A DNA stretch of 64,000 bases, from the NCBI GenBank assembly GCA_012517325.1, contig JAAYVF010000107.1:3032-67031 (forward strand), given 5' to 3'. This DNA is from Myxococcales bacterium. Lineage in GTDB: Bacteria; Lernaellota; Lernaellaia; Lernaellales; Lernaellaceae. A model generated the notes under the pieces. That model did not search any database, was not told where the DNA came from, and was given only the letters and a program-made list of their open reading frames with translations. The first letter of the stretch is position 1. Each line of letters begins with the position of its first letter. Below are positions 5,781-44,731 of this stretch, in pieces. The translations under genes were made by a program, and so were the position numbers.

Positions 5781-6380
5781 CTAGCAGCCGCAGCCGCCGG
5801 AATCGTTGTCATCATCATCATCATCGCCAACCGTGTCGTCGTCCGGCGGGGTGACGTCGTCGTCAGTACCACCGAAGTACCAGACACCAGACACAAACGT
5901 GGCGCCAGCGTCGTCGCCGGTCAGCAACCAGGCGAAGCCGTCGGTAGCCGCATCGTCAGTCGTCGCCATGAACGAGAAGGTCAGCATGTCGCCTTCCGCG
6001 ATATCGCCGATTTCAGCCGACGACATGGCGCCCGTACCAGACGATTCCCAACTGATCGTGCCGGTGGTCTCGTCGAACTCGACGGTCCATTCCATATCAC
6101 TATGAATGGCATCGGGAGCCGCGTAGGTACCCATCACGTAGTTGGTGTTCGGCAGAGTGATGTCCACCTTTTTAATGGCAACATCGCCACCAGAGGTGTT
6201 GAAAACGTCGAACGCGAATTCATAGTCGGTGCCCGCAACCAGCGCGACCGAAGATTCGCCGTTCGCCGTACCGGTCAGGCCGAAGACTTCCGTAGCGTCA
6301 TCATCTTGGGCCATGACCATCCCCGACATAGCAAAGACAGCAGCCATCATCAAAGCGATCAACAGGAACTTCTTGAACAC
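5781..6380 (-). CDS. secreted protein with C-terminal Asp-rich linker ending in GCGC-COOH
   Basis: I prefer the GTG at 6378-6380 because AGGAGG lies 6 nt upstream; it gives MFKKFLLIALMMAAVFAMSGMVMA|QDDD, a textbook Sec signal peptide. The C-terminus is ...GGTDDDVTPPDDDTVGDDDDDDNDSGGCGC*. GC content is lower than the flanking DNA. Confidence 0.65.
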   Translation of the reverse strand: MFKKFLLIALMMAAVFAMSGMVMAQDDDATEVFGLTGTANGESSVALVAGTDYEFAFDVFNTSGGDVAIKKVDITLPNTNYVMGTYAAPDAIHSDMEWTVEFDETTGTISWESSGTGAMSSAEIGDIAEGDMLTFSFMATTDDAATDGFAWLLTGDDAGATFVSGVWYFGGTDDDVTPPDDDTVGDDDDDDNDSGGCGC

Positions 6381-6675
6381 GTTATCCCTCCTTTCCTCCA
6401 CTTTCCTCGGTTTTATTCTGACTCATTTCATTTCTGACCAAGGTAAGTGCTTGAACTCCGATGACTGTAGTAGTCATCACCTCCTTCTTGTTAAACTTTT
6501 CATAGCCTGCAAACGTTACCGCTCTCGCCGATACAATAATATCGACGTGATACCGCTTGATTTGTTATCTAACACGGTTTCCCCATTAAAATCAACTAAA
6601 AAAATGAGCCGGTAAGTGCTTGAAATGTGTTTTCAATAGTTAACCGTCTCAGTTGATATTATGACCCTACAGTAA

Positions 6676-9042: not shown

Positions 9043-9186
9043 GGACTCCTTCCGTCCCGCCGCGACCACAAGTAAGGCATGAAAGTTACCCAAGCGCTCG
9101 GGCAGTGTCAAACACGGATTGAATCGCGCGAACCGGCTGTGGCGGAGCGGCTGGCCCGAGGCGCGCTTCTTGGCTAGACTGAAATC

Positions 9187-9849
9187 ATGAAAAATCACCG
9201 CTACCCAAGGCTGTTTTATTCGGTTTTATTGTTGCTCCTCGCGCTGGCGAGCCCGCAATGCGGCGATCCGGAACAGACGACCGCGGCTGGCGGCACGACG
9301 CAAGCCAGTCTCGACGCCGACGGCGACGGCAAAATCGACGGCGTTCCCGACGGCGTCGCCGATTGGTTCACGGTGCAGGAATTGGTGACGCTCGCCAACG
9401 CCGGCCTGCCGATCTACACCGGCGAAAATCCGCCGGCGATCGACGGCGTCTATCTCGCCGACACCTTGCGGATCGTCTTCGACTCCCTCGGCGCGTCCGG
9501 CGATCTGGCGGTTTATCGGTTCACCTTCGCCGACCAGCAATCCGACGGGTCACTCGTGTTGTCTTACGAAAGCGAGGGCGTGGATTCCTCCGCCGGCAAT
9601 CCCGCCTGGATCGCCGGCGAAGGCGACTGTTTTTCGGTGTTCACCAACATCGAAGGCTATCAGGAAGAGGACGATTGCACCTACCAGCGGCCGACGGTCT
9701 ATTCCGCCTGTCTGAACGGCGAAGGCGACCTGACCGGCTTTTTCTTCGGCTTCATCATGAAAGGGCTGTCGGGCGATTGTTCCGCCACGATGCCGGAGGG
9801 CGGCTACCGGGTCATCGGCGAGAACGACGGTCTCGTCGCCCGGCAGTGA
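9187..9849 (+). CDS. secreted hypothetical protein
   Basis: The 220-aa ORF opens with a signal peptide (MKNHRYPRLFYSVLLLLLALASPQCGD). It has no recognisable domain but contains a DADGDGKIDGVPDG stretch that may bind Ca2+. Confidence 0.5.
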   Translation: MKNHRYPRLFYSVLLLLLALASPQCGDPEQTTAAGGTTQASLDADGDGKIDGVPDGVADWFTVQELVTLANAGLPIYTGENPPAIDGVYLADTLRIVFDSLGASGDLAVYRFTFADQQSDGSLVLSYESEGVDSSAGNPAWIAGEGDCFSVFTNIEGYQEEDDCTYQRPTVYSACLNGEGDLTGFFFGFIMKGLSGDCSATMPEGGYRVIGENDGLVARQ

Positions 9850-18248: not shown

Positions 18249-19298
18249 TTAAAGAAAATTGCCGTGCGGTTTTTCCGGGTTGGCCAGGTAGGCGAACAGG
18301 TCGTTGTAATGGTCGTAGCGCATGTACGAAGTGTGCCCGACGCAAATCCGTTTGCAGTGGCCGGCCGTGATCTTGCGCAGGATTTGCCGTCGCTCCTTGC
18401 CGTGCCAGAGCTCCGGCAGGCTTTTTTCGTAGATGCTGCCGAAACAATACTGCTTGTTGCCGCGCGTCGAGCAGCAGGCGTACAAGCCGCCGTCCGCGCC
18501 GAGGATCCCCACCAGGTGGTGGCCCAAGCACAGCTCGTAGGGCTTGGCGTGGATGCCCTTCGAGAAATTGTAGATGCGGAAGCCCATCACGGTGAAATTC
18601 TCATCCTCGTATTGCCGCCGGGCGAACAGGTAGTTGGCGTCGATGCTCATGTAGAGTTCGGTGTCGAACATCTCCTCGGTGGCGACGACCCGTTTGAAGG
18701 CGATGTACCGGCAGCCGGCTTCCTTGGCCCGCTTGGCCGCGATGGCCATTTCGTGGAAGGTGGACGGGTGGATGATGTAGATGATGCCGGTGTACAGATC
18801 CTTGGCGACCGCGTTGATCCCTTCCTGGATTTTGGCGAAGGCGTTCGGATTGACCGGCCGGTGGGTCATGCGGTGCGTCTCGGCGCTGCCGGCGTCGAGC
18901 GAAATCCGCAACCACGAACAGGTTTCCAGGATCACGTCGCGAAAATCGATCACCCGCTCGCCGTTGGTGATGATGCCGACGTCCAGGCCGATTTTTTTCG
19001 CGTGGCGCAGCAAATCGGCGATGTACGGATAGACCAGCGGTTCGCCGCCGCCCTTGATCACCAGGCTCCGGACGCCCATCTCCTTGGCGTCGGAGATGAT
19101 CTTTAACGCGACGTCCCGGGGCAGAAAAACGCCGCGATTTTCCTCGCGGTGGTGGTAGTCGATGCACCAGACGCAATTGTGGTTGCACGAATTGGTCGGG
19201 TCCATTTCCAGCGTGACCGGCGGCGGCAGTTCGCCGCGCAGCACCGCCTGGATGCGATCGATGTGATTGATGATCTTGAATTCGGAGAATTCCCGCAC
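18249..19298 (-). CDS. radical SAM protein with SPASM-like C-terminal Cys cluster
   Basis: 349 aa with CNHNCVWC (CxxxCxxC) near the N-terminus and additional C-terminal cysteines (CCSTRGNKQYC...CKRIC). Confidence 0.75.
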   Translation of the reverse strand: MREFSEFKIINHIDRIQAVLRGELPPPVTLEMDPTNSCNHNCVWCIDYHHREENRGVFLPRDVALKIISDAKEMGVRSLVIKGGGEPLVYPYIADLLRHAKKIGLDVGIITNGERVIDFRDVILETCSWLRISLDAGSAETHRMTHRPVNPNAFAKIQEGINAVAKDLYTGIIYIIHPSTFHEMAIAAKRAKEAGCRYIAFKRVVATEEMFDTELYMSIDANYLFARRQYEDENFTVMGFRIYNFSKGIHAKPYELCLGHHLVGILGADGGLYACCSTRGNKQYCFGSIYEKSLPELWHGKERRQILRKITAGHCKRICVGHTSYMRYDHYNDLFAYLANPEKPHGNFL

Positions 19299-22619: not shown

Positions 22620-23609
22620 CTACAGCGTGTAGGTGACGCCGGCGGTCAGCACCTCGACTTGCGCCTTGACCTCGGCGGCGATGCGCTGCAGGGAATGGTC
22701 GCAGGTGTCGTGCGCCGACAGCAAAATCCGTTCAGCGCCGGATTCGTTCAGCGACCGGATCGTGCGGTCCAGGTCGCGGTCGTCGATCCGTTCCCACCAC
22801 CCCTTGCCGGTGCCGATGATCTGCTGAAATTCGATGCCCAGTTTCGCGCCGCGCGACTGGGTGATCGGGAAATGCAGCCCGCCGATGATCGCGTGAATCG
22901 GCTCGGCCGACAAGCGGCGCACCATTTGGATGATGACTTCGATGGTCGGATGGCCGCACCCGGTGACGATGACCAGGCCTTTCCCGGCAAGCCGGGCGAT
23001 CACCGCCTGTTCCTCGGTGATGCCGGTGAAGCACAGCATCCGGGCCAGCGGGCCGGTCGAGGCGAAGCCCGTGGGGAGCGCGCGCGGCGCGTCGATCACC
23101 TCGGCCGTCAGGCCCGGCGTCGCGCAGGGAGCGGGCAGATAGCAGGGGAGATCCTGGGGCGGCGCGAATCCCGGCGGAATGAGCACCGACTTGCGCCGCA
23201 CGGCCGTCAGTCCGCCCATGTGGTCTGGGTGCAGGTGGGAAATGAAAAGCGCTTGCCAGGCGGCGGGGTCGATCCCCAGGTTGGCGGCATTGTGGGCGAA
23301 CGCCGGGCGCTCGGGACCGAAACCGACGTCCATGAGCATCACGCCCCGCTCGTGGCGCAACTGGTAGACGACCGCGGCGTCGCCGATAAAGCCGTCGGCG
23401 TGGCGATGGTCCACGATGACGGTCAACTCGAAGCGTTGCCGGGCGGGCAGCTCGAGCGGCGCGGCCTTTTCGAGCCGCGCGGCGTTCCTCGCCTCGGCCT
23501 CTTTCACCCCGGCGGTGAACTTCCGCGCTTGAATCGCCAGATAAGGAACCAAGGCGGGAGAAGTCGCCGCCAACAACGGCCACCAATAGGGAGCGATGCG
23601 GTATTTCAT
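22620..23609 (-). CDS. MBL-fold metallo-hydrolase (membrane-anchored N-terminus)
   Basis: The HLHPDHMGG motif and TGCGHPT are present. I chose the start MKYRIAPYWWPLLAA (rc cat 23607-23609). Confidence 0.7.
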   Translation of the reverse strand: MKYRIAPYWWPLLAATSPALVPYLAIQARKFTAGVKEAEARNAARLEKAAPLELPARQRFELTVIVDHRHADGFIGDAAVVYQLRHERGVMLMDVGFGPERPAFAHNAANLGIDPAAWQALFISHLHPDHMGGLTAVRRKSVLIPPGFAPPQDLPCYLPAPCATPGLTAEVIDAPRALPTGFASTGPLARMLCFTGITEEQAVIARLAGKGLVIVTGCGHPTIEVIIQMVRRLSAEPIHAIIGGLHFPITQSRGAKLGIEFQQIIGTGKGWWERIDDRDLDRTIRSLNESGAERILLSAHDTCDHSLQRIAAEVKAQVEVLTAGVTYTL

Positions 23610-24055
23610 GGCGGCGATCGTAGCGTCCGGCGAGGGCTTTGAACAGGCCGCGGCCTCGCCCTCCTTCAAGTGTAAGAGCGGCTTAGCAGCCGCGATACAA
23701 ACCCATGCCGTCTTTTCGTGCGCAAGCCGGAATCCACACCGCCGCTCACCAACCCATCACTACCAATGAGCTTTGAAAATTCTCTGATTTACAAGCCTTG
23801 ACTTTGACAACGCATTGTAGTGTTATTTATCCATGTGCTGAGGAATGATCGAATCCTCGGTTGTGAGAAATTCCGACGGTAGTCGAAGGATGGAGTTAAA
23901 TAATGCTCCTGAAACTCCAATTTCTATATACTGTCCCCGAAAATCCGGAAATCCATCGGAAATCCGGAAAGCAAAAAGCGGAGGGAGATAAGTAATGTGT
24001 CCCCGGAATTCGGAATTCCCAATATTTTATTGCCGAAATTGTTATTAATGTTATC

Positions 24056-25366
24056 TTGCTATTTGTAATTCGCGAAGGTCAGGCAAAAGTATTTCTCACT
24101 AAACTTAACCAGACCGGTTCGGTTGCTTGGGAGTATTTTGAAGAGGCGGAATTCAGTTCCGAGGATTTGTTGTTATGTGGTGATGGCCTATATTTCGTTC
24201 GTGAACAAAGTCTATCGCGTCTGACGAAAAATGGCGAATTATCCTGGCAGGACGAATATCCCTATCAATATGGAAACATGCTTTGCGATGAAAATGATCA
24301 GGTTTTGTTGTTGGTCACTACAGCGGGCGCACCTGCGACCGCGATACTTTATCGTTATTCGATCGATGGTGAAAGAGAAACCATCGGCGAATATTATCTT
24401 GGAGAATTTGAGGCGAATCCGGCCATCCTTTATCCACTATCCGAGGCAAATTATTCAATCCATGTCGAAAGTGAATATGAGATGTATGAACAAATATTGA
24501 TAATTAATAAAATAAATGGGGAAGAAACGGGACGAATTGAAATCGAAACATCGTTGGGCGAAATGCTACCTTTTAAAATTGTGCGCTCCATGAATGACGA
24601 TTCGATTATTGTCCTATTACAAGCGGGCTGGGGAAATACCTACCTACAAAGATATAAAACGGACGGAACGCTTCTCTGGGAAGAAAAGCTGGAAAATATT
24701 GCATTTCCGACCTTGAACGTAAGTGAAAACAATGAAATCGTTTTAGTGGCGGCGGAATCAAACGACGAGGAATATTTACAAGGCCTTTATGTTATTAGAA
24801 AAATATTAGTAATTAAAAATGATGAAAACGGAAAAGATATGTCCCAGAATGTAATTATTCCACTTTTTGGTGGCGACCAGTCCGCAATCGGTGAAGCGGA
24901 TTTTATTATATTAGCTGGTGATAAGGTTGCTTTTATTGCTTCTTATTGTGCTGAACCATATTACCAAATATATCGTTCTATTATCTCTCAACGATTCACC
25001 ATGGACGGCAAACAAGAAATGTATGGGATAATGGACACAAAATATTCCTATTTAAGCATGGAAGAAACCTATGTCGACGCCGCGAATAATCAATATGTGT
25101 TGAGCCAAGGGGGACCAACCGGAGGGGAAATCGGTAACGAGGATATTGTCTGCGGTAAGATCAATGAAATCGGCCAGATTCAATGGATATATCATTACGA
25201 CTGTGGCGGTGGTCTGTTGGATCGTCCTTGGGGAATGGAAGTGGACGCTGAAGGCAGCGTCTACCTAGTGGGCGATGTGTGCCATGAGCAACCGGATATT
25301 TTCGACGATGATACAACCGTCGAGACCGACGAAGATAATGGCGACGAACCAGGCTGCGGCTGCTGA
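24056..25366 (+). CDS. AT-rich (foreign-composition) hypothetical protein ending in acidic linker plus GCGC-COOH; start uncertain
   Basis: A 436-aa ORF in a region of roughly 38% GC. The C-terminus is ...DIFDDDTTVETDEDNGDEPGCGC*. The track start is TTG with no SD and no obvious signal peptide, so the N-terminus may be mis-called or the gene degraded. Confidence 0.5.
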   Translation: MLFVIREGQAKVFLTKLNQTGSVAWEYFEEAEFSSEDLLLCGDGLYFVREQSLSRLTKNGELSWQDEYPYQYGNMLCDENDQVLLLVTTAGAPATAILYRYSIDGERETIGEYYLGEFEANPAILYPLSEANYSIHVESEYEMYEQILIINKINGEETGRIEIETSLGEMLPFKIVRSMNDDSIIVLLQAGWGNTYLQRYKTDGTLLWEEKLENIAFPTLNVSENNEIVLVAAESNDEEYLQGLYVIRKILVIKNDENGKDMSQNVIIPLFGGDQSAIGEADFIILAGDKVAFIASYCAEPYYQIYRSIISQRFTMDGKQEMYGIMDTKYSYLSMEETYVDAANNQYVLSQGGPTGGEIGNEDIVCGKINEIGQIQWIYHYDCGGGLLDRPWGMEVDAEGSVYLVGDVCHEQPDIFDDDTTVETDEDNGDEPGCGC

Positions 25367-25707
25367 TTCGTCCGCCTGCCGCCGTTTTCACATTCCACTT
25401 CCGCTCGGCATGGCCATCGATCCTAGCGGATCGAAGACCATGGCACCCCGAAAAGGATCGCACCCTTCGAGACGGACAAGGACCTCCTCAGACGGCGGTG
25501 AAAACCGGACACTTGTCAAATTTACGAAAACCTTTTCTTTTCCATTGGAAAACAAATGTCATTCAGCCTGCGGCAAGATCCACCCGACCGACTGGCGATG
25601 ATGCGTCTACCTATAGCCCCGACTGGCGAGAAGCGAAATTCGTGCTATTAAGGGGCAAACTTCGCGGTCGGCCGCGGCGCGGCCGGTCGCCGGACGAGGG
25701 AGCATCA

Positions 25708-27141
25708 ATGTTCGCCACCTACGATGAACTGCTGAATTACTGCACCACGAACCGCCTGGAAATGATCGACCTGAAGTACATCGATTTGTTCGGCCGCTGG
25801 CAGCACCTCACCATTCCGATCAAGCGCCTGTCGCCGGCGCTGTTCACGGACGGCGAGCCGTTCGACGGGTCGTCGGCGCCCGGTTACAAGAAGGTCGAGT
25901 CGGGCGACATGGTTATCGTGCCGGATATCCGGACGGCCGAGATCGACCCCTTCTGGAACTATCCGACCCTGAGCCTGATCTGCAACATCTGCGAGGCCGA
26001 CACCAAGCAGTTGTTCGGCCGCGATCCGCGCGGCGTGGCCGACCGGGCCGAGCAATACCTGCGCGCGACGGGCATCGCCGATTGCAGCCTGTGGGGGCCG
26101 GAATTCGAGTTTTACATTTTCGATTCGGTCAACGTTCGCGAGGACATCAACACCAGCTTTTACATGATCGATTCGGTCGAGGCCGACTGGAACAGCGGCA
26201 TGGAAGGGCAGAACCTCGGCCACAAAATCCCGCGCAAGGGCGGCTACCACGCGGTGCCGCCGCTCGACGCCATGTTCCAACTGCGCGCCGAAATGTCGAT
26301 GACCCTCGAAAAGATGGGCATCCCGGTGCGCTACCACCACCACGAGGTCGGCGGCCCGGGCCAGTCGGAAATCGAAACGCTGCTCGACACCCTGACCCGC
26401 ATGGGCGACAACGCCATGCGCACCAAGTACATCATCAAGAACATCGCCCAGCGCCACGGCAAGACGGTCACCTTCATGCCCAAGCCGCTGTTCAACGAAG
26501 CCGGCAGCGGCATGCACTTTCACCAGTACCTGGTCGACGCGGCGGGCCGCAACCTGTTCTACGACGAAAAGGGCTACGCGGGACTTTCGGAACTGGCGCG
26601 GCATTACATCGCCGGCCTGCTGCTTCACGGCCGGGCCCTGGTGGCGCTGACCAACGCCAGCACCAACAGCTACAAGCGGCTGGTGCCGGGTTTCGAAGCC
26701 CCGACGAAGCTCTTCTTCGGCCAGGCGAACCGTTCGGCGGCGGTGCGGATTCCCAAGTATGCCGCGAAGCCGGAGGACAAGCGGATCGAGTTTCGGCCGC
26801 CCGACGCGACGGGCAACCTGTATTTCGCGATGGCGGCGCAGCTCATGGCCGGCATCGACGGCATCCGCCGGCGCCTCGATCCGACCGAATTGGGCATGGG
26901 GCCTTACGACGTCAACGTGCGCGACATCCCCGCGGCCGAGCTGGCGAAGATCCAATCGGTGCCCGCGTCCTTGCAGGAAGCCTGCCTGGCCCTCGCGGCC
27001 GATCACGAGTTTTTGCTGGAAGGCGGGGTGTTCAATCGCGGGATCATCGACACGTGGATCGACCATAAGATCAATCACGAATACTACGCCGTGCGGAACC
27101 GCCCGCACCCCTACGAAATCAAGTTGTACTTCGACCTGTAG
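25708..27141 (+). CDS. glnA: glutamine synthetase (type I)
   Basis: 477 aa from the ATG at 25708 (GAGGGAG upstream). Typical GS blocks are present: ...KPLFNEAGSGMHFHQYL..., NSYKRLVPGFEAP, RIEFRPPDA. Confidence 0.9.
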   Translation: MFATYDELLNYCTTNRLEMIDLKYIDLFGRWQHLTIPIKRLSPALFTDGEPFDGSSAPGYKKVESGDMVIVPDIRTAEIDPFWNYPTLSLICNICEADTKQLFGRDPRGVADRAEQYLRATGIADCSLWGPEFEFYIFDSVNVREDINTSFYMIDSVEADWNSGMEGQNLGHKIPRKGGYHAVPPLDAMFQLRAEMSMTLEKMGIPVRYHHHEVGGPGQSEIETLLDTLTRMGDNAMRTKYIIKNIAQRHGKTVTFMPKPLFNEAGSGMHFHQYLVDAAGRNLFYDEKGYAGLSELARHYIAGLLLHGRALVALTNASTNSYKRLVPGFEAPTKLFFGQANRSAAVRIPKYAAKPEDKRIEFRPPDATGNLYFAMAAQLMAGIDGIRRRLDPTELGMGPYDVNVRDIPAAELAKIQSVPASLQEACLALAADHEFLLEGGVFNRGIIDTWIDHKINHEYYAVRNRPHPYEIKLYFDL

Positions 27142-27147
27142 CGGTTT

Positions 27148-28713
27148 TTAGCAGCCGCACCCGCCGTCGTCGTTGTCGTCGTCACCGCTCGTCGAGCCGG
27201 CGTCGTCGTCATTGTCGTCATTGTCGTCATTGTCGTCATTGTCATCGTTGTCGTCGTTGTCGTCGTCATCGTCGGCGGTATCGTCGTCCGGTGGGGTCGC
27301 GTCGTCGTTGTCGTCGTCATCGGCGGGCGTGGTGTCGTCGTCGGTCGGCTCGGTCAACTCGTCGTCGCCGTAGGGGCCGTCGCCGGGCAGGATGCCGTAG
27401 TAAACTCCCAGCCAGTACCCGATGAGGTAATCCACCCCGTGCGCCGTGTGCGCGGGATCCTCGGGCGTGCTGCAGGATACGTGATACGGGCTGCGTTCCC
27501 ACAGCACCGAATCCCAGCAGCGGTCGTCCACCTCGTGGGCGTCGAGGGTCTGCGGATCGATGTCGAAGCCGGTCAGTTCCTCGATCCAGGGGTATTGCTC
27601 CAGCAGATCGCTGGCCCAGACCGAAAACGGGTCGAGCGGCATTTCGCTGCAGGTGACTTCGCGCTGGTAATTCGGCGCTTCCCACATCACTTCCAGGCTG
27701 TGGCGGATGTCTTCAACCATGGCTTCCAGCTCGCCCGCGTCGCAGGTGCCCAGGCGCAGGCAGGCGGCGTAATAAACCGAGTCGAAAAACGGGTTGTGCC
27801 CGTCGTTCGACCACGTGCGGACGTTGACCTTCCAGATCTGAAACAGGTGCTCCATCCGCTCGCGATCGGGCCACAGCCGGAACATGTTCGGCACGTTGGA
27901 GTAGTTGTTGATGAAGGCGTAGTAATCGCTGTACCGGTTGAAAAAGGCGATGCTCGTCACCCACAGGAGGGTCTTGTTCTTTTCGTATTCCGAGTCGAGC
28001 AGATCCCAGAAATAGGGTTCGTCGATGACGTGCGCCGCCTGGATGAGAATCGAGAGCCGGATGTCGGGCAGGATTTCGGCCGCCGAGTAGACGCCGCCCC
28101 AGGGGTCGACGATTTTCCAGTTGTTGCTTTCCAGGGTGAGGATGACGTCGCGGAAATCCTCGCGGATCGTGTCGCGCATCGTCGCGTCGTCGACGCTGTC
28201 GTAGGCCCAGGTCAGGCCCCAGAACCAGGTGATGTACTTGTCGCGGACGTTCTTGCCGAGCCAGAAATCGCCGGCGTAATCGCCCGTGCCGAGATAGCGG
28301 GCGTCGCTGTCGAGCGATTCGACGTTCCACGGCGCCTCGTCGGGCGCGGCGTAGCGGGCCAGGTAGCCCGGATCGCCGGTGATGTCCTTCAGAATATGCA
28401 TGTAATGGGCGATGCGCAGCACCTCGTCGCGCGCCTCGGTCTCGCCGGTGACCTGGTAGCGGATCGCCTGCGTGACCAGGTAGGTGCCGGTCCAGTCGCC
28501 GCTGTCGCCGCTGCCCCAGGTGCGCAGGATTTCGGTGCGGGTTTCGTCGGTGAACAGCACGTCCGAAACGCCGCCCAGGCCGGTCGAATGCCATTCGCGC
28601 AGGAAGGCGGTGTAATCGGCGGCTTTCTGGTGCAGGTACGGGTCGAAATCGCGGGCCGCCGCCGGAACGGCGAGCAGGGCCAGCAAGAGCAGCAAACAAG
28701 TCGCGAGGCGCAT
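27148..28713 (-). CDS. secreted hypothetical protein with C-terminal poly-Asp/Asn linker ending in GCGC-COOH
   Basis: The start MRLATCLLLLLALLAVPAAA|RDF (rc cat 28711-28713) gives a signal peptide. A ~450-aa Trp-rich domain is followed by ...DDDTTPADDDDNDDATPPDDDTADDDDDNDDNDDNDDNDDNDDNDDDAGSTSGDDDNDDGGCGC*. Confidence 0.65.
   Translation of the reverse strand: MRLATCLLLLLALLAVPAAARDFDPYLHQKAADYTAFLREWHSTGLGGVSDVLFTDETRTEILRTWGSGDSGDWTGTYLVTQAIRYQVTGETEARDEVLRIAHYMHILKDITGDPGYLARYAAPDEAPWNVESLDSDARYLGTGDYAGDFWLGKNVRDKYITWFWGLTWAYDSVDDATMRDTIREDFRDVILTLESNNWKIVDPWGGVYSAAEILPDIRLSILIQAAHVIDEPYFWDLLDSEYEKNKTLLWVTSIAFFNRYSDYYAFINNYSNVPNMFRLWPDRERMEHLFQIWKVNVRTWSNDGHNPFFDSVYYAACLRLGTCDAGELEAMVEDIRHSLEVMWEAPNYQREVTCSEMPLDPFSVWASDLLEQYPWIEELTGFDIDPQTLDAHEVDDRCWDSVLWERSPYHVSCSTPEDPAHTAHGVDYLIGYWLGVYYGILPGDGPYGDDELTEPTDDDTTPADDDDNDDATPPDDDTADDDDDNDDNDDNDDNDDNDDNDDDAGSTSGDDDNDDGGCGC
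27203..27273 (-). repeat. 9-nt tandem coding repeats (gtcattgtc / gtcgttgtc on the plus strand) encoding (DDN)n
   Basis: Direct reading: gtcgtcgtcattgtcgtcattgtcgtcattgtcgtcattgtcatcgttgtcgtcgttgtc... Confidence 0.7.
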
Positions 28714-28744
28714 GCGGGTTTCCTTGTTGGTGGTTGGCCGGGAC

Positions 28745-30571
28745 TCAATGCACCCAGCGAGCATACCAGTAGGCGTAACGGAAATCGACGCCGGGCAACA
28801 ACGCGTTGCCGCTGCCGCCGCCGTTCGGGCAATACGGATTCGAGCGCCAGTGGTAATTGCTCACCGGCCGCACCTCCTGCGGGATCGGCTCCTTGCAGAT
28901 CAGGTCGTCGTTGCGGCCTTTGTAGCCCAGCACCGTGACGACGTCGCCGTTTTCCAGCGTGCAGGTGCCGGCGGCGATTTCGTCCTCGTCGCAGTTGATG
29001 ATGCTGGTATCCCAGTAGGGCGGTTCGTGGAAGGCGTAGAGGGTTGCCACGCCACGGTCGACGGCGTCGAGGTCGGGCGCCTGGATCATGGAACCGTACG
29101 CCGAGGCGCCGGATTCGGCGGTCGCGTAAACGAAATCGAACAGCGAATAGGAATATTCCTCCGGCTGGCGTTGGAGCAGAAACGGCCCGTTGAAATACAG
29201 ATGATTGCGCGTGGTATAGCGGATCTTGTCGCGCACGTGCGGATTGTCGAGGTACCGTTGCGCCAGCAAAGCGCCTTCCAGCGCCATGTTCACGGCGCTG
29301 AAATTGGTGATCAGGCCCAGGTTGACGCCGAGCTGCTGGTTCATCGCGATGCGGTCGAGTTCCCGTTCATCGATCAGCGTGTTGTAGAGGTAGTCCTCCA
29401 GCACGGGGTCTTCCGAGCAGTAGGTCAGCGCGGCGACGATGCCCAGGGACATCAGCGAATACATGCCGTCTTTGATCGGCAGCCAGGCGAAGTAATAGCG
29501 GTCGAAGGCGTTTTCATTGAGGTAGCCGTGGTAGGTGGTCCGGCCGTCGGCGTCGAAAATTTCCAGGTCGAAGGCGCCGCCGAGGCTGCCCGGGCCGCCG
29601 GTCCGCTCGACCATCAGTTGCCGGCCGATGTCGCTGGCGTGCTGCTGCAATCGGGTCTTGTCCGCCGCGGCGAAATTCTCGTCGTCGCGGATGACTTCCC
29701 AGAGCGCGCCGAACGCGGCGGCCCAGCCGATGAACTGGTCGCGGCTGCACGAATCCTCCCAGATGTAATTCGGGAAGGCGTGGTCGGCCGAGTTGTCCTC
29801 GCGCCAGGTGCCGTTGTTTTTCTCGGGCGGCAGCGGGTTGCCTTCCTCGTCGAACAGCGGCGTCGTTGCCTGGGTCTGATAAGGGCCGGGGATGTCGGTT
29901 CGGCAGAATCCGCGAGCGATGATGCCCGGCTCGCCGGTGATTTCCACCGCGACGAAAAGCTGCTCGAGGTCGCGCTGGAGAAACTCGCGCGCCCGTTCGA
30001 TATCCTCGGGCGGATAATCCTGATCGCGCAGAACGCCGTACCGGAAGGCGTCGGCCGCGATGCCCACGCCGGCATACAGCCCGGCCACTTTTTGCGTGGC
30101 GGTGATGGCGTCCAGCGGATCCTTGCCGCTGAAGGCCGCGTAGTCCCAGGAATCGGAGTTCTGCAGGAAGTCGGCGATCTGCGCGCGGTCTTCTTCCTGG
30201 ATCAGATCGACGTTGACGTCGGCGTTGACGCCGTTGCCGGCGCAGTTGAACAGCAAGTGCTGGCGGTCGAAGCGGTCGGCCTTGGCTTCGAGTTCGGCGT
30301 CGTAGCCTTCCTCGGCCGGTCCGGGCAATAGCGACGTGCCTTCATAGGGTGGCGTGTTGTCGTCGTTGTCGTTGTCGTCGTTATCATCGTCGTCGTTGTC
30401 ATCATCATCGTCGTCATCATCATCGAGCGGCGAGGAGTCGTCGTCGTCATCGGCAATCCCGGCGTCGTCGTTGTCATCATCATCGCCGTTGTCGCAGGCA
30501 AGAAACGCGCTTACGCCGATGAGCAGAAGGATGAGTAAATAAAAGTAACCACGCCAGTCGGACCGGATCAT
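28745..30571 (-). CDS. lipoprotein with N-terminal poly-Asp/Asn linker; function unknown
   Basis: The start MIRSDWRGYFYLLILLLIGVSAFLAC|DNGDDDDNDD... (rc cat 30569-30571) has a lipobox FLAC. A ~70-aa acidic linker, including DDDDDSSPLDDDDDDDDDNDD...NTPP, is followed by a ~500-aa Trp/Tyr-rich domain. Confidence 0.65.
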   Translation of the reverse strand: MIRSDWRGYFYLLILLLIGVSAFLACDNGDDDDNDDAGIADDDDDSSPLDDDDDDDDDNDDDDNDDNDNDDNTPPYEGTSLLPGPAEEGYDAELEAKADRFDRQHLLFNCAGNGVNADVNVDLIQEEDRAQIADFLQNSDSWDYAAFSGKDPLDAITATQKVAGLYAGVGIAADAFRYGVLRDQDYPPEDIERAREFLQRDLEQLFVAVEITGEPGIIARGFCRTDIPGPYQTQATTPLFDEEGNPLPPEKNNGTWREDNSADHAFPNYIWEDSCSRDQFIGWAAAFGALWEVIRDDENFAAADKTRLQQHASDIGRQLMVERTGGPGSLGGAFDLEIFDADGRTTYHGYLNENAFDRYYFAWLPIKDGMYSLMSLGIVAALTYCSEDPVLEDYLYNTLIDERELDRIAMNQQLGVNLGLITNFSAVNMALEGALLAQRYLDNPHVRDKIRYTTRNHLYFNGPFLLQRQPEEYSYSLFDFVYATAESGASAYGSMIQAPDLDAVDRGVATLYAFHEPPYWDTSIINCDEDEIAAGTCTLENGDVVTVLGYKGRNDDLICKEPIPQEVRPVSNYHWRSNPYCPNGGGSGNALLPGVDFRYAYWYARWVH

Positions 30572-30747
30572 GGCCTGCCTCCGGAGACAATTTTTAAGGA
30601 ACGGCATCGAGCCGCGGTTTTGAACGCGCGTTCATTATGCGGGATCGATTCAGGGAGTCAACCGAAACGAGGCGACCCGATCGACTCGGTCGGATGAAAA
30701 AGTCGCGCGGATGGGTCGGATTCACTATCCGGAAAAGGGCGGCTAAG

Positions 30748-34861: not shown

Positions 34862-36496
34862 ATGCGCCGTTTGTTGTTCATCCTGTTGCCGATTTTGTTG
34901 CTCGTCCTTTCGCTCGCCGCCTGCGACAACGATGATGATGATAATGACGATTCCACCGTCGTGGCAGATGACGATACCGGCGTCGACGATGATGACGACG
35001 ATGACGATGATGACGACGATGATGACGACGATGACGACGATGACGACAACGACGATAATGACGACAACGACGACAACGACGATAACGATGACAACGATGA
35101 CAACGACGACGTTTCGCCCGAGTGTCCCGACGCGGACGAGGACGGATATACCGACGAAAATTGCGGCGGGCTCGACTGCAACGACGCCGATCCGGCGATC
35201 AATCCTGACGCCTACGACATCTGCGGCGACAACATCGACAACAACTGCGACGACATCGTCGACAACCCGGACGATCCCGTCGTCGAATTGCCGGAGTTCA
35301 TCCTCGGCATCAGTTCGGGCGGCAGCTTCACCACGTACCTGCCCGGCTTGGGAATGACCTGGGTGCGCATCACCATTTCCTGGAAGTGGGTCCAGGCGGA
35401 AGTCACCGATCCCGACCTGACCATGGCCGACATCGAGGCGAATCCCGGCCTCATCGACGATTTCATCGCCGCGATCGACTGGACCTCGATCGACAACTAT
35501 GTGCGTGGCCTGCAAGCCGCCGGGCTCGACCCGATCCCGCTGGTCGGCCACGGCTACAGCAATACGCTGCCGGCTATCGAAGGCGAACTGGCGACGCCCG
35601 ACCGCCTGGGCACCGAGCATTATCTGGCGCTGCAATACCGCTGGGTGCGCGCCCTGGTCGAGCGCTACGACGGCGACGGTTACCTCGACGCCGACAACAT
35701 CGTCGTCAAGATCTGGCAGACCGAAAACGAGCTCAACCAGGCCATGCTGACCGCAGTCTGGGGCTGGCGCGATCCGCAGTGGCTCGACGCGCTGACCTCG
35801 GCCTGGGCCGATTGGGATTTCTGCACGACGCTCCTGTCCACGCTGTACGACGCGGTGCACGACGCCGACCCGGAGGCGATCACCGTCCAGAATCTGCACA
35901 CCGACGTGCCGCCCGAAATTTCGCACTTGTTGTTCCAGCCGTCGTGGACCGAGGCGGCCACGCAATGGCGCGATTACATGGATCTCGTCGGCTTCGACGC
36001 TTATCCGAATTATTACCTGGCCGAGCCGGTGATGGGCGATCAGATCGGCGCGCGCGTCACGCAGCTCGACGAGGCCGCGTGCGGCAAGCCGGTCATCGCG
36101 ATGGAAATCGGCTACCCATCCGGCCCGGAGGAACTGGGCTTCACCTGGGACAACCAGGCGCAGTTCATCGACGACGCGTTCCATTCGGCTTACGAAGCCG
36201 GGGCCGTGGGCTATCTGCATTTCGGGTTGAACAGCGACGACACCCACAGCGTGGAAATCACGCCCGAGGACATCGCCAACCTGGAACTGGTCAGCGGGCT
36301 TTATCTGAATGAATCGTGGCTGCAGCTCATGCTCTGGGCGGCCGGCAACCTCGATTACATCAACAATCACTTCATCGACGTGTTGCAGTCGGTCGAGGAA
36401 TATTGGGGCGTGATCTACAACGTCGGCCCGGTCTACAAGCCGGGTTATACGACGCTGCAGAATATCGCGACCGAGGTTTACGGACCGAAGGAATGA
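34862..36496 (+). CDS. lipoprotein: poly-Asp/Asn linker, Cys-rich MopE-like putative metal-binding motif, and TIM-barrel glycoside hydrolase-like domain (GH5-like)
   Basis: It opens MRRLLFILLPILLLVLSLAAC|DNDDDDND..., then CPDADEDGYTDENCGGLDCNDADPAINPDAYDICGDNIDNNCD, then a domain with TENELNQ (NEx acid/base-like) and AMEIGYP (nucleophile-like Glu). Confidence 0.55.
   Translation: MRRLLFILLPILLLVLSLAACDNDDDDNDDSTVVADDDTGVDDDDDDDDDDDDDDDDDDDDDNDDNDDNDDNDDNDDNDDNDDVSPECPDADEDGYTDENCGGLDCNDADPAINPDAYDICGDNIDNNCDDIVDNPDDPVVELPEFILGISSGGSFTTYLPGLGMTWVRITISWKWVQAEVTDPDLTMADIEANPGLIDDFIAAIDWTSIDNYVRGLQAAGLDPIPLVGHGYSNTLPAIEGELATPDRLGTEHYLALQYRWVRALVERYDGDGYLDADNIVVKIWQTENELNQAMLTAVWGWRDPQWLDALTSAWADWDFCTTLLSTLYDAVHDADPEAITVQNLHTDVPPEISHLLFQPSWTEAATQWRDYMDLVGFDAYPNYYLAEPVMGDQIGARVTQLDEAACGKPVIAMEIGYPSGPEELGFTWDNQAQFIDDAFHSAYEAGAVGYLHFGLNSDDTHSVEITPEDIANLELVSGLYLNESWLQLMLWAAGNLDYINNHFIDVLQSVEEYWGVIYNVGPVYKPGYTTLQNIATEVYGPKE
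34984..35110 (+). repeat. poly-GAY tract followed by 9-nt (gacgacaac) tandem coding repeats encoding poly-D then (DDN)n
   Basis: Direct reading of 34981-35110. Confidence 0.7.
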
Positions 36497-36651: not shown

Positions 36652-38223
36652 CTACTTCGCGACCCCAAACCGCAAATACTGCACCCAGCCGGTAATCGTC
36701 ACGTCCACCGCGCCGTCGGCGGTGTCGCCGCTCGCCAGCGGGTCGCCGTTCTGGTCGTACAGTCCCCAATCGCCGGTCGCGCCGGAAGGCAGGGGCACGC
36801 TGACCGGAAATTCGTGTTCGAGCATCGTCTGGTCGTGCCAGAGGCCGAGTGTCCACGTGCCGTCGTCGGCGGCGAAGGCAAGGGCGTGCAAATCGCCGTC
36901 CCACGCCAGCGCCGCGCCCAGGTCGCCGGCGAAGCGCGACTCGCCCAGCATCTGGTCTGCGCCGACCAGCGCGTTGTAGGCCGGTTTGGCGGCGATGGTG
37001 CCGCCCGGCCACGAATACAAACCGAAGGTGTCCTCGGTCGGCGGCGTCGCGCCGCCTTCGCCGTCCCAGAAGGTGTACCAGTAGAAATATTCGACCTCGG
37101 CCTGCAGGGCGAGCAGCAGGCCGCGCGCCGCGAAGGCGCCCTGCCGTTCCTCGCCGATGAAGTAATCCGGCCAGCCCATCTCGGTGAGGTAGATCGGTTT
37201 GTCGCCGCAGCCGATATCCGCCAGCCGTTCCCGCGCCGCCGCGATCATCCCCGGCATATTGGGGTAGACGAAAAAGCCGAGGTCGAAGGTGAATTCCGGC
37301 CCCGGCTGCTGGAAGAGCGTGTAGGGGTGGATCGCCATCGCGTCGATGAAGTCGCAAAGATCGGGATGCGCCTCGGCGACCTGCGACAGGAAATTCCAGA
37401 CGCCGTTCTGAATCAGGTCCGGGATGTTGTCGAAATCCACGGTGGACAGGCCGCCGAAAAGGACGGTCGCGCTCGGATCGTTTTCATGGATCGCGGTATA
37501 GGCCGCCTTGAGCAAGGTGCCGTAGTGGTCCGGATTGGGCGCCGGCGACCAGAACCGCGTCGTGTTTTCCTCGTTCCAGATTTCGTACACGTCGATGCGA
37601 TCGGCGAAGTGCGCCGCGACCGAGCCGTTGAAATCCGCGTAGATTTCCGGATCGATGTCGTCCGGCGATCCGTTGGGCATGGCCCAGCCGACTCCGTAGG
37701 CCATCATCGCGTCCACCTGGATGCCGGCATCCAGGTTCAGATCGACCATCGTGTCGTAGCCGTCGAAGTACCATTCGTCGTCGTTGGGTTCCAGCGTGCT
37801 CCAATGAAAATCGGTGCGCATCATGCCGACGCCGGCGTTGCCGAGTTGCCCGATTTCGAACTCGCGCAATTCATCGTAGCCGGCGCCGTTGCTCATGTGG
37901 CTGGAAATGGCGAGGATTTCGCCGAGTGTTTTGCCGGACGGAGCAAATCCCGCGTATGGATCGGTCGGCGTGGTGTCGTTGTCGTCGTTATCGTCATTGT
38001 CGTCGTTGTCGTCGTTGTCGTCATTGTCATCGTTGTCGTCATTGTCATCGTTATCGTCGTTGTCGTCGTCGTCGACTGGCGAAGAGTCATCATTATTGTC
38101 ATCGTCGAGCGGCGAGGAATCGTTGTCATCGTCATCGCCGTTGTCGCAAGCGGAGAAACCGAAAAGCGCCGCCAGGCAGAGAAAAAGAAGAACCGCGTGA
38201 GGAATGGAAATCAACCGCTTCAT
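36652..38223 (-). CDS. lipoprotein with poly-Asp/Asn linker and GH5-like TIM-barrel glycoside hydrolase domain
   Basis: It opens MKRLISIPHAVLLFLCLAALFGFSAC|DNGDDDDND..., with a (DDN)n linker, EIWNEEN (NEP-like acid/base) and YLTEMGWP (nucleophile Glu). Confidence 0.6.
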   Translation of the reverse strand: MKRLISIPHAVLLFLCLAALFGFSACDNGDDDDNDSSPLDDDNNDDSSPVDDDDNDDNDDNDDNDDNDDNDDNDDNDDNDDNDTTPTDPYAGFAPSGKTLGEILAISSHMSNGAGYDELREFEIGQLGNAGVGMMRTDFHWSTLEPNDDEWYFDGYDTMVDLNLDAGIQVDAMMAYGVGWAMPNGSPDDIDPEIYADFNGSVAAHFADRIDVYEIWNEENTTRFWSPAPNPDHYGTLLKAAYTAIHENDPSATVLFGGLSTVDFDNIPDLIQNGVWNFLSQVAEAHPDLCDFIDAMAIHPYTLFQQPGPEFTFDLGFFVYPNMPGMIAAARERLADIGCGDKPIYLTEMGWPDYFIGEERQGAFAARGLLLALQAEVEYFYWYTFWDGEGGATPPTEDTFGLYSWPGGTIAAKPAYNALVGADQMLGESRFAGDLGAALAWDGDLHALAFAADDGTWTLGLWHDQTMLEHEFPVSVPLPSGATGDWGLYDQNGDPLASGDTADGAVDVTITGWVQYLRFGVAK

Positions 38224-42841: not shown

Positions 42842-44215
42842 ATGAAAATCAATAAGCACCTCCTGGCTAATATCAGGATATTCAAGTGGGCACGCACAAA
42901 GGGCTTTCTTCTGTCATTTCTTGGCATCGTGATCATTGCCGTTTTCTATACATTCGGGACGGCAAAATGGGCTTGGAAAAGTGTATTCATCGGTCGACCG
43001 GCCTTTATCCCGGTGCAAATTTCCAACCAGGTAAACAGGCTGGAATTGAATGCCACGATTGGCGGCATTCCGTTTTTTCTGGCTCGTTCGCCTGCCGCGG
43101 CAGCTTATTGGTGGAAATATCATTCAATCGGCAATGGCAAGGACATTGCGGACTGCGATGTGAACGGCGGTTCGGCACTTGAATTGATCGATACGGAATA
43201 TCCCGATTCGGATAACGCGAATGGCGTTTGCCGGAGACATATTCAAGTTCGTTGTTCGACCGATAAAAACGGGGCTGACCAAACTTTAATTATCGAAAAC
43301 AAAGACATCTCTTTTAGTTATATTCCCAAGGGAGTCAAACCGGAAGACATCTCATCGGCGTCGAATATCCCCGAGGAATGCCAAACGGTTGCGTGGCCTC
43401 AATACCGGAACCTGTTTTTATTGACCAATGTTGAAGCGAAGCCGGATAAACAGGGTTCGATCGTAGTAGTCCCACAAGCAATTTATTGGCGTAAAGTCGC
43501 ATGGTCCAGTTATCAGGAAGAGCCGATTAAGCAGAGCGCCGCCGTCAGTCAGACGACAACAGTCGAAGCGAAACAGTGCGTTCCTCACTTCTTTTTCAAT
43601 GCGACGAATTCTCCCGAGTGCCAATTTGTCCGCGAGATACTGGTCAAACCATCCGTAGTGAATGAAAGAGACCCACAGTATTCCCTAACAGAGAAAGTGA
43701 AAAAGGGTGCCACTTATCTGGTCCCCATCATTTTGTATTGTGTTCTCTGGTTGGATACATTTTTATTTTGCTTTGTTCTTGGCGCCGGATTGATGTATCT
43801 GATTGTCAATAAGAAACCCAACAATCCGACAGTGAACAATGGCGATGCTGAATTGGGGCATGTCAACGAAGAACGAAGGGAATTGCGTCAATTCCTGGAG
43901 TGGCTGGAAGTTATCGGCCCGGCAATCGGTTTTTGGTTGACCGTCGGCTCGTTATTGTTGGCTTTCGAACCGGGGACTTTCGCCGATCAAGACAAAATCG
44001 CTTTTGCCTCGGGAATTTCCATGGCCATGACGGCAACCTTTGCCGGTCTGCTCATGCGCATCCTGGCCTTCACTGGCGATCGTCTGGTGTTACAAATCCT
44101 TTATCTTTACCACGGCGCCGACAAGGAAGGTTTTTTCCCGAAACCGAAAAAATTGGTGATGGAACCCAGTGGTGACACGCCCAAGGCCGGAGAGGAAAAA
44201 GGAACCGGACAATGA
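42842..44215 (+). CDS. ExbB/TolQ/MotA-family-like proton-channel protein with a ~300-aa N-terminal extra-cytoplasmic extension
   Basis: AAGGA lies upstream. The N-terminus is basic with TM1 at ~22-42. A ~300-aa Cys-containing hydrophilic domain follows. Three C-terminal TMs then match the TolQ/ExbB core: the last two, ...IGPAIGFWLTVGSLLLAF...ISMAMTATFAGLLMRILAF, resemble it. The gene lies in a low-GC island. Confidence 0.5.
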   Translation: MKINKHLLANIRIFKWARTKGFLLSFLGIVIIAVFYTFGTAKWAWKSVFIGRPAFIPVQISNQVNRLELNATIGGIPFFLARSPAAAAYWWKYHSIGNGKDIADCDVNGGSALELIDTEYPDSDNANGVCRRHIQVRCSTDKNGADQTLIIENKDISFSYIPKGVKPEDISSASNIPEECQTVAWPQYRNLFLLTNVEAKPDKQGSIVVVPQAIYWRKVAWSSYQEEPIKQSAAVSQTTTVEAKQCVPHFFFNATNSPECQFVREILVKPSVVNERDPQYSLTEKVKKGATYLVPIILYCVLWLDTFLFCFVLGAGLMYLIVNKKPNNPTVNNGDAELGHVNEERRELRQFLEWLEVIGPAIGFWLTVGSLLLAFEPGTFADQDKIAFASGISMAMTATFAGLLMRILAFTGDRLVLQILYLYHGADKEGFFPKPKKLVMEPSGDTPKAGEEKGTGQ

Positions 44216-44715
44216 TGCAAAGGGTTAATTCGCGAGATGATTTGTTTTTATCGGCTCTGGATCTCTACACTCTTTTATCATTGATGTTCATCGGTGTGGC
44301 TTACCTGACGACGTATGGTGGCATGGCGGGAAGGGATCTCGAACTGCCTACCGCAGCCGGCGATTCCACGCAACCGTCGCCGATGGATATGCCGGTTGTG
44401 CGATGGGTGACTACCGGTTTGGAAAATGGCAAATGCACCGTGAAATTCAATCCGCTTGGCAAGTTGGCCGGATTGATCCCAGCCGCGACTATAGAAGTAC
44501 CTTGTCGGCCTGCTGCTTTTCTGGGAGGGGAACGAGGCCCCGATCCGACGCTTGCTTTAGCGGCGCAAAGATGGCGCGAACTCAACGCGGGTAACGACCG
44601 CGTGCCGCGAGTGGCTATCGCTTGTGAACGGGTGGATATCGAATCCTGCGCGCGATTGCAATGGGTATTCGGCGAGGCTGGTTTCTTAACCTTTGCTGCG
44701 GTCGCCGGCAATTAG
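44212..44715 (+). CDS. ExbD/TolR-like protein
   Basis: 167 aa with a single TM (LDLYTLLSLMFIGVAYLTTYGG) followed by a periplasmic domain with ExbD-like spacing (DLELPTAAG...; VPRVAIACERVDIESCARLQWVFGEAGF). The start overlaps the upstream stop as ATGA. Confidence 0.45.
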   Translation: MMQRVNSRDDLFLSALDLYTLLSLMFIGVAYLTTYGGMAGRDLELPTAAGDSTQPSPMDMPVVRWVTTGLENGKCTVKFNPLGKLAGLIPAATIEVPCRPAAFLGGERGPDPTLALAAQRWRELNAGNDRVPRVAIACERVDIESCARLQWVFGEAGFLTFAAVAGN

Positions 44716-44731
44716 TGATGGAGTGTCGATA

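Follow-up and report, generated by a model that had tools for sequence, protein, structure and literature searches.

A Frameshifted Low-GC Gene with an Acidic GCGC Tail in a Myxococcales Bacterium Genome and a Candidate Helix-Less C-Terminal Anchor

An open reading frame (ORF) of low guanine-cytosine (GC) content is located at positions 24056..25366 (+) of a 64,000-nt stretch (hereafter, the window) of contig JAAYVF010000107.1, which belongs to a metagenome-assembled genome (MAG) of a Myxococcales bacterium (GCA_012517325.1). It has 436 codons from a TTG, is annotated by NCBI as hypothetical protein GX444_18485, and terminates with an acidic linker (25289..25351 (+); QPDIFDDDTTVETDEDNGDEP) followed by Gly-Cys-Gly-Cys (GCGC) and a stop codon (25352..25366 (+); GGCTGCGGCTGC-TGA, that is, GGC TGC GGC TGC TGA). 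The best joint explanation, which is given about an even chance, is that this is a genuine gene for an exported beta-propeller protein that carries the C-terminal anchor module of its lineage, that it is one of a divergent pair of low-GC paralogues, and that the copy in the window is frameshifted. The protein would be built for export and then held by its acidic linker and Gly-Cys-Gly-Cys-COOH. The other member of the pair, P0111, is located on a separate 108-kb contig (L082) from the same sample, and both are filed by NCBI in one MAG, 'Myxococcales bacterium' GX444 (GX444_18485 and GX444_03460).

The GCGC Tail as a Protein Module

The visible DNA of this organism is 85 kb, composed of the window and 21 kb of L082. 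Across these 85 kb, an Asp-rich linker and GCGC end five proteins from three otherwise dissimilar families, corresponding to ~6% of the genes. Four of the five have clear Sec signal peptides, and the fifth, the 24056 ORF, has a frameshifted one. A search for the tail DNA at two or fewer mismatches yielded four matches against 0.19 expected, three of which are true C-termini with ...GCGC after an Asp-rich run. Besides the 24056 ORF, these are the gene ends at 5781-5795 (-) (GGCTGCGGCTGC-TAG) and 27148-27162 (-) (GGGTGCGGCTGC-TAA, encoded by GGG TGC GGC TGC). The tail had been described in the earlier note as identical to that of the gene at 5781, and the same twelve bases, GGC TGC GGC TGC, are indeed found in both. 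These shared 12 nt are mostly what the host codon bias yields for G-C-G-C. Since the three tail genes end in three different stop codons, recoding is no issue for the tail.

The tail protein at 5781..6401 (-) represents family A; it is ~200 aa long and consists of a signal peptide, an Asp-rich linker, and SGGCGC before the stop codon. A second family A member is located at 1477..2133 of L082, with 54% identity. Among 22 family A homologues from many metagenomes, 21 end with CGC (19 GCGC, 1 NCGC, and 1 SCGC), and the full-length ones start with a signal peptide. A related genome (L092) has three tandem family A paralogues, all with the tail.

Family B is represented by the gene at 27148..28764 (-), whose product of 521-538 aa (called as 521 aa, 27148-28713) has a signal peptide, a long Asp/Asn linker, and GGCGC before the stop codon. 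Poly-Asp and a Cys within the last six residues were observed in 65 of 109 family B homologues, and 28 of these end with GCGC. The other endings include GCCG, ACCG, GGCG, GCGG, and CCGN/K/R, and there are variants with a single Cys (GGCG, DGCS, and GGCA). The named sources include Candidatus Lernaella stagnicola, Candidatus Alcyoniella australis, and several MAGs labeled 'Deltaproteobacteria' or 'bacterium'. Relatives with genomes of 48-52% GC keep the tail peptide with other codons, such as GGC GGA TGT GGG TGC in P0049, while P0029 ends with TCCGN. The preservation of the peptide with different codons across genomes indicates selection at the amino-acid level. From these comparisons, the tail is best regarded as a protein module rather than a DNA motif, attached to unrelated exported proteins. 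Thus, the proposal of the earlier note that the tail is functionally selected and widespread is supported by its different codons in relatives, its presence on unrelated protein families, and its wide distribution in the lineage. In ~20 kb around glnA from each of the closest genomes, a sample too small to be meaningful, no tail protein was found.

The Tail as a Candidate Anchor

The relationship between the tail and N-terminal lipoboxes was analyzed with the 105 full-length members of family B. The tail alone is present in 61, a lipobox alone in 21, both in 5 under a loose rule, and neither in 18. The two features are anticorrelated (odds ratio 0.07, p = 2e-7). Of the five members with both, four carry a Cys that belongs to an ordinary signal peptide, and in the remaining one the tail itself is doubtful. 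Eleven distant members start with ...A-G-C-G-G-D-D-D-D... and have no C-terminal tail, which mirrors ...D-D-D-D-G-G-C-G-C. Two other family B homologues, P0045 and P0077, have a hydrophobic helix and an Arg cluster at the C-terminus in place of the tail. The exchange of the tail with a lipobox followed by poly-Asp, or with a helix and Arg, is the pattern expected of alternative anchors.

The same mirror arrangement is encoded in the window. Adjoining the family B tail gene, a lipoprotein gene at 28745..30607 (-) encodes a distant family B relative with the lipobox LAC, an Asp-rich linker, and no C-terminal tail. Two lipoproteins of the same type, with a lipobox Cys and a long Asp/Asn run, are encoded at 34862..36496 (+) and 36652..38223 (-). 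In all three, the Asp/Asn run directly follows the lipobox Cys (e.g., LAC-DNGDDDDNDD), and in this genome acidic tethers at the N-terminus seem about as common as those at the C-terminus. No lipobox Cys is present in the 24056 ORF, in either of its two repaired versions described below, or in P0111. Only 6 nt separate the family B gene at 27148 from the end of glnA, which leaves no room for a hidden transmembrane helix, and reading through the stop codon of the 24056 gene revealed no hydrophobic stretch.

It is inferred that one or both of the terminal cysteines are covalently modified, most probably lipidated, and would tether the protein to the membrane or the cell surface, with the Asp-rich run as a spacer.

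Two radical-SAM proteins are encoded in the window, an unclassified radical-SAM/SPASM protein at 18249-19298 (-), whose best NCBIfam score is 75 bits against cut-offs of at least 380, and a B12-binding one at 51692-53047 (+); neither could be linked to the tail proteins. As radical-SAM genes occur near tail genes, Cys-Asp cross-linking in the tail by such an enzyme was considered. It was rejected as unsupported: the radical-SAM protein beside P0049 is HydE, to which the radical-SAM/SPASM protein of the window is unrelated.

Similarity to MYXO-CTERM and Other Terminal Signals

The MYXO-CTERM signal (TIGR03901; myxosortase MrtX) is composed of a GCGC-type signature with an invariant Cys, a transmembrane helix, and an Arg cluster; in the current model, an unknown enzyme lipidates the Cys, and the intramembrane protease myxosortase then cleaves (10.1101/2023.06.07.544157; PMC11980579). 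The modifying enzyme is still to be found (PMC11980579). The tail shares with it the invariant-Cys signature, very often G-C-G-C (here on three proteins of the window and two of L082), the disordered region before the signature, the C-terminal location on Sec-exported proteins that are otherwise unrelated (here three families), and the large number of such proteins per genome (10.1101/2023.06.07.544157; PMC11980579). The host MAG is also filed under Myxococcales by NCBI. In contrast to MYXO-CTERM, a stop codon (TGA, TAG, or TAA) directly follows GCGC, with no transmembrane helix, the Arg cluster is absent from the tail proteins, and the region before the signature is extreme poly-Asp. As both the helix and the Arg cluster are missing, an intramembrane protease would have nothing to cut away, and no myxosortase cleavage would be needed.

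The NCBIfam hidden Markov model (HMM) of MYXO-CTERM gave no match at E ≤ 1 for the tail proteins of the window or at E ≤ 5 for P0111, the 218-aa protein of L082, P0045, and P0077. No full tripartite signal was found in the 85 kb of this organism, and in the window or relatives only off-frame artefacts were seen. No member of the CPBP/Abi family, to which the myxosortases MrtX, MrtC, and MrtP belong, is included in the precomputed Pfam labels for window positions 651-54715. Judged by the helix, the Arg cluster, and the HMM, the tail is outside MYXO-CTERM. It resembles the end that is predicted for a MYXO-CTERM protein after processing.

It is tentatively proposed, at somewhat less than an even chance, that poly-Asp-GCGC-COOH is an undescribed C-terminal anchoring signal, a 'ready-cleaved MYXO-CTERM' in which a Cys pair at the terminus is modified, probably lipidated, without the helix or a sortase-like protease, and which would be used by a few percent of the genes in a deep Myxococcota-like/Lernaellota-like clade and be portable on foreign surface-protein cassettes. 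No description of a helix-less form of MYXO-CTERM was found in a literature search, and no NCBIfam model matches the tail. Such a signature-only tail separates the modification step from the proteolytic step of MYXO-CTERM sorting, and the transferase might be traced by contrasting genomes that have the bare tail with those that have the full signal. In uncultured lineages, the tail would further serve as a marker for many probable surface proteins, most of them unannotated.

N-terminal lipoproteins processed by Lgt and LspA likewise have a Cys beside a flexible acidic stretch at the very end of the mature protein, and the ...AC-DNGDDDD... of the lineage lipoproteins mirrors ...DDDDGGCGC. In Bacteroidota, the surface exposure of lipoproteins is directed by acidic residues that follow the lipid-bearing Cys (PMC5080379; PMC6222051). 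The N-terminal Cys-Asp/Asn tethers of this lineage recall that acidic export signal. The tail differs in that its Cys is at the C-terminus, without the signal-peptide h-region that presents the Cys to Lgt, and any lipidation of the tail is putative.

The C-x-C-COOH ending also resembles the CaaX and Rab CXC endings of prenylated eukaryotic proteins, by analogy only. Rce1, a homologue of myxosortase, cleaves CaaX proteins, while the Rab-type CXC and CC endings need no cleavage. By the same analogy, a MYXO-CTERM protein with its transmembrane helix would be to the helix-less GCGC tail what CaaX (cleaved) is to Rab CXC (uncleaved). Prenylated proteins are cytosolic, whereas the tail proteins here have Sec signal peptides, and to our knowledge no protein prenyltransferase acts on exported proteins of bacteria.

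Composition of the Low-GC Gene

The frame of the 24056 ORF is uninterrupted from 23996, giving 456 open codons. When these bases were shuffled 2000 times, open frames reached at most 185 codons, with a mean of 72; thus, the ORF is a gene rather than a chance ORF. Its GC content is 42.1% as a whole and 40.3% in the body (24056-25177), falling to 35-39% in 300-nt windows, within DNA of 61-71% GC. The value of roughly 38% in the earlier note was slightly low yet fair. The GC contents at the first, second, and third codon positions (GC1, GC2, and GC3) are ~0.50-0.53, 0.32-0.33, and 0.40, respectively, against ~0.62, 0.42, and 0.82-0.89 in the neighboring genes. The codon adaptation index (CAI), calculated with the 33 window genes with GC3 > 0.75 as the reference, is 0.32, the lowest among the 44 genes scored (41 from the window and three comparison additions). 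Typical host genes show ~0.6-0.8, with 0.81 for glnA and 0.80 for the native tail gene at 27148. The codon adaptation test suggested by the earlier note thus sets the gene apart from its host.

The low-GC stretch extends from ~23.70-23.76 kb to ~25.1-25.4 kb. The left edge of the island drawn in the earlier note (23.67-25.40 kb) is the start of the homology with the paralogue locus, and the first 91 nt of the homologous block are still 59% GC. The 3' 189 nt of the gene are 53% GC, closer to the host than the body is. The public MGnify gene call covers just the last 121 codons of the 436 (window 25001-25366) and has no Pfam match in the precomputed tables. Gene callers easily lose low-GC genes in GC-rich contigs, and a caller trained on GC-rich DNA kept only this part. 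The truncation explains why a word-indexed protein search with the ORF returned nothing, not even the ORF itself.

Homology and Predicted Structure of the Encoded Protein

A full phmmer scan of 1.84 billion representative proteins revealed one full-length relative, P0111 (407 aa, 30% identity), together with the 121-residue fragment that is the MGnify call of the same ORF. A protein-based locus search in the JGI metagenomes and IMG/VR found no relatives, and across these three collections no homologue is encoded by any AT-rich genome. P0111 has a clean signal peptide, MIKIRPIAILILLLLIITLESSWG, and ends with ...NDADQGCGC encoded by the same GGC TGC GGC TGC TGA. Its gene shows a GC content of 0.44, GC3 of 0.48, and CAI of 0.35 inside DNA of 0.63-0.67 GC. 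The two proteins are 36-38% identical near the start, drop to 12-28% through the middle, and rise again to 40-47% towards the end. The coding DNA can be aligned only over the last 190 nt (69% identical), and the homology between the two loci ends exactly at the stop codon.

An AlphaFold2 model of the 24056 protein from an alignment of the two sequences is all-beta (pLDDT 61.6, pTM 0.57), and its Foldseek matches are all beta-propellers with TM-scores of 0.3-0.5. The model suggests a beta-propeller-like, all-beta protein. Over residues ~337-423, the protein shares 30-37% identity with multi-repeat proteins scored as SBBP (PF06739) by Pfam. However, the first 300 residues match only the paralogue, and typical SBBP proteins are much longer with regular repeats. 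The Pfam SBBP model has no match at E ≤ 1 to the 24056 ORF, its last 121 residues, or P0111, and NCBIfam Lepto_SBBP_lipo gives 19 bits only, against a cut-off of 400. PHROGs and PADLOC returned nothing for the 24056 ORF. A phage or defence origin was rejected; P0111 has just one weak PHROGs match of unknown function and nothing in PADLOC.

Disruption of the Signal Peptide Region

The annotated TTG at 24056 has no Shine-Dalgarno sequence, and its product has no hydrophobic leader (the best 11-residue Kyte-Doolittle score is 0.5), as the earlier note had stated. In the alignment with P0111, whose intact gene shows the proper N-terminus, the 24056 ORF begins in the middle of the signal peptide. 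A strong Shine-Dalgarno sequence, GGAGGG (23980..23985 (+)), serves ATG 23995 and GTG 23997 rather than the annotated TTG. From the ATG, a 17-codon ORF containing Cys is read (23995..24048 (+); MCPRNSEFPIFYCRNCY), which is the tiny upstream ORF noticed earlier behind this Shine-Dalgarno sequence. From the GTG, a 23-codon ORF in the third frame (23997..24068 (+); VSPEFGIPNILLPKLLLMLSCYL) encodes the first half of a signal peptide. This ORF reads ...NILLPKLLLM, and at precisely this point the paralogue carries an additional base (CTGATTATC vs. ATG-TTATC).

The frame can be repaired in two ways. If 1 nt is added after 24050, at the position of the additional A of the paralogue, the 23997 ORF becomes continuous with the main one, and MPKLLLMIILLFVIREGQA-KVF... 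is read from TTG 24030; this version makes the best alignment with the P0111 leader and reaches a Kyte-Doolittle score of 3.76. Alternatively, a 7-nt deletion brings ATG 23995 in frame with the main ORF. A tandem pair of GGAATTC is located at 24005..24018 (+); with one copy or with three, ATG 23995 or GTG 23997 would come into frame, and a leader starting at ATG 23995 also results when one copy (7 nt) is removed. The idea that a recent 7-nt tandem duplication caused the frameshift was set aside, weakened by a related imperfect pair, CGGAAATCT-CGGAATTCC, in the 5' untranslated region (UTR) of the paralogue. The 1-nt deletion model is favored because it fits the paralogue better. The frameshift suspected in the earlier note is therefore borne out, since a signal peptide is regained when 1 nt is added or 7 nt are deleted.

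An independent Logan contig from the same run is identical over 23983-25424, so the frameshift is not an assembler artefact, although both assemblies were built from one set of reads. In this copy, the body and the signal-peptide region are in different frames. As the body is fully open, the disruption is recent, varies within the population, or is bypassed to a small extent. A protein translated from TTG 24056 would stay in the cytoplasm and could never use its tail. This copy is probably switched off or very recently inactivated by the frameshift.

Conserved Upstream Sequence

The two loci share an upstream block of 285 nt (23670..23954 (+)), which is 86% identical to 9696-9980 of L082 by blastn and alignment. 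The part after its first 91 nt is 40% GC. A sub-repeat of 32-45 nt has one copy in the block (~23699-23741) and three copies in the GC-rich DNA upstream of the paralogue. The block has no further copy elsewhere in the window or among 80 loci from other genomes. A putative promoter core (23798..23826 (+)), with a TTGACT/TTGACA doublet at 23798-23809 and TGTTAT at 23821-23826, lies in a 76-nt stretch with 2 differences between the loci. It was read from the sequence and the alignment as inference only, and a consensus scanner made no call. The 24-nt core has no exact match in the JGI metagenomes, and a second 24-mer has none in IMG/VR. A possible 5'-UTR hairpin (23891..23919 (+); TGGAGTT...AACTCCA) corresponds to TGGAATT...AATTCCA in the paralogue with one compensatory pair; RNAalifold on the two sequences gives it weak support. 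An Rfam scan of 23500-25800 gave one chance-level match only.

Several minor features were observed in these regions. A possible small upstream ORF, MELNNAPE(T/I)PI(S/F)IYCPRKS..., with a poor Shine-Dalgarno sequence, is conserved between window 23891-23991 and L082 9916-10005, with 5 synonymous and 4 non-synonymous differences in 21 codons by hand count. The 5' UTR in the window has a 66-nt internal expansion, marked by the repeats TGTCCCCGAAAATC at 23932 and TGTCCCCGGAATTC at 23998. Enrichment of the motif CGGAA[AT]T was dismissed as merely a small local cluster in the 5' UTR. In L082, the three copies of the 32-45-nt element are located at 9349-9767 and have the core TTTCCGTGCGCCAGCCGGAAACCAC with a TTTCCG-N9-CGGAAA palindrome. 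Between the first two copies are ~200 nt with an imperfect inverted repeat (~70% identical) and CCCAGCGTTTCAACGCTGGG-type hairpins. This region resembles a small non-autonomous element or an array of binding sites.

Origin and Alternative Explanations

The evidence on origin points in two directions. The composition is foreign, with GC, GC3, and CAI all deviating as in a horizontal island, while the tail, the style of the linker, and the GC-rich start of the upstream block are native. Horizontal acquisition from an AT-rich source had been proposed in the earlier note. The foreign composition stands, but simple import from a distant AT-rich taxon is unlikely, since the only relative is a low-GC paralogue in the same MAG with the same tail and the shared 285-nt block. 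No closer homologue was found in a donor lineage than in host relatives. Single import followed by duplication is also a poor fit, because amelioration should erase the low GC content long before 30% identity is reached. More probably, the pair was brought in, each gene together with its promoter as a unit, from a relative of lower GC content with the same tail system, which would explain a native tail on a compositionally foreign gene. A donor within the clade is possible, as tail-using relatives at 48-52% GC exist. Such a transfer is favored as roughly twice as probable as fast evolution of a native family.

For the latter, the genes would belong to a fast-evolving family of surface proteins in which the middle drifts to low GC content while the promoter block and the 3' end, with the last blade, the linker, and the tail, are kept similar by purifying selection or gene conversion. 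The mechanism would be relaxed or diversifying selection with AT-biased mutation in two genes of old residence. This scenario is considered unlikely, yet several observations fit it: conservation is high, low, and high again along the locus, from the block through the protein to the last 190 nt, the 3' end is richer in GC than the body, the block opens with host-like GC-rich sequence and a host repeat, and no homologue is known outside this MAG. Signs of mobility are also missing, with no other ORF longer than 51 aa in the island, no tRNA gene in the window, no flanking direct repeat, and no mobility gene. No long repeat involves the 24056 gene, and a diversity-generating retroelement or template repeat was rejected. 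On the other side, GC1 and GC2 are shifted as well as GC3, as after long residence in a low-GC genome. We know of no mechanism that holds two single genes at 40-44% GC within DNA of 63-67% GC, which speaks against the native scenario, and a second atypical cluster at 42842-48983 (CAI 0.33-0.50) indicates that this genome does acquire foreign DNA. An assembly chimera, with an AT-rich piece of another organism misjoined to a GC-rich contig, is highly improbable. The Logan contig does break at both ends of the AT-rich piece, spanning 23983-25424 only, but the gene is embedded in long GC-rich sequence in the ENA/MEGAHIT contig (102,722 nt) as well as in the NCBI MAG contig (72,664 nt), the second locus shows the same architecture, and the gene bears the tail and linker of the host lineage.

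Two other alternatives concern the tail and the state of the gene. Instead of a lipid anchor, GCGC might be a reactive dithiol, a CXC that is redox-active or forms disulfide cross-links to a partner or matrix, or a thiol-plus-carboxylate site for metals or minerals with the Asp run binding cations; this is rather doubtful. CXC peptides are redox-active mimics of protein disulfide isomerase, and a dithiol is consistent with two C-x-C cysteines at a free, flexible, and highly acidic end, with the CCG and GCCG variants that retain two adjacent thiols, and with the lack of a hydrophobic segment to meet a membrane enzyme. It is at odds with the single-Cys variants and with the mutual exclusion and interchange of the tail with lipobox-poly-Asp and helix-Arg endings, which are predicted for alternative anchors and not for a binding site. 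Disulfides are also unstable in an anaerobic digester, which the sample appears to be. That the 24056 ORF is a dead gene, whose tail is a fossil uninformative on current selection, is a serious possibility, though short of probable. It agrees with the wrong frame of the signal-peptide region in both of the independent assemblies from this run, the missing Shine-Dalgarno sequence at TTG 24056, and the MGnify call that retained only the last 121 codons. However, 436-456 codons are open in DNA of 40% GC, far above the shuffled expectation, so any inactivation is very recent unless the body is still being translated; besides, P0111 is encoded by an intact gene, and selection on the tail is demonstrated independently in the native families.

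Several points weigh against an anchored protein acquired from a relative. The Cys modification is putative, no candidate transferase was identified, and a soluble, helix-less tail has no obvious way to reach a membrane-bound lipid transferase; the MYXO-CTERM HMM matches none of the tail proteins. No donor is known, and the lowest GC content among the tail-using relatives found is 48%, not 40-42%. The repeat in the GC-rich start of the block also occurs in host-like DNA upstream of the paralogue, which fits a native origin better. Non-coding identity of 86% against coding identity of 30% in amino acids is not predicted by single import and duplication. The placement of both paralogues in one MAG depends on binning, which can err.

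Additional Features of the Window

The atypical cluster at 42842-48983 consists of five co-directional genes (457, 167, 550, 597, and 270 aa) with no Pfam matches, several of them with hydrophobic starts; their GC3 is 0.53-0.66, and their CAI values are below the ~0.6-0.8 of typical host genes. The family A gene at 5781-6401 is flanked by genes for large polytopic membrane proteins at 3901-5571 (+) and 6676-9198 (-), which have C-terminal TPR repeats and N-terminal membrane domains without Pfam matches. This flanking arrangement is kept in the related genome L092. Membrane proteins of the PMT/PMT_2 type are encoded within a few kb of tail genes in three other loci (L090, L091, and L093). The proximity of membrane proteins and tail genes could reflect synteny in the lineage or a functional link.

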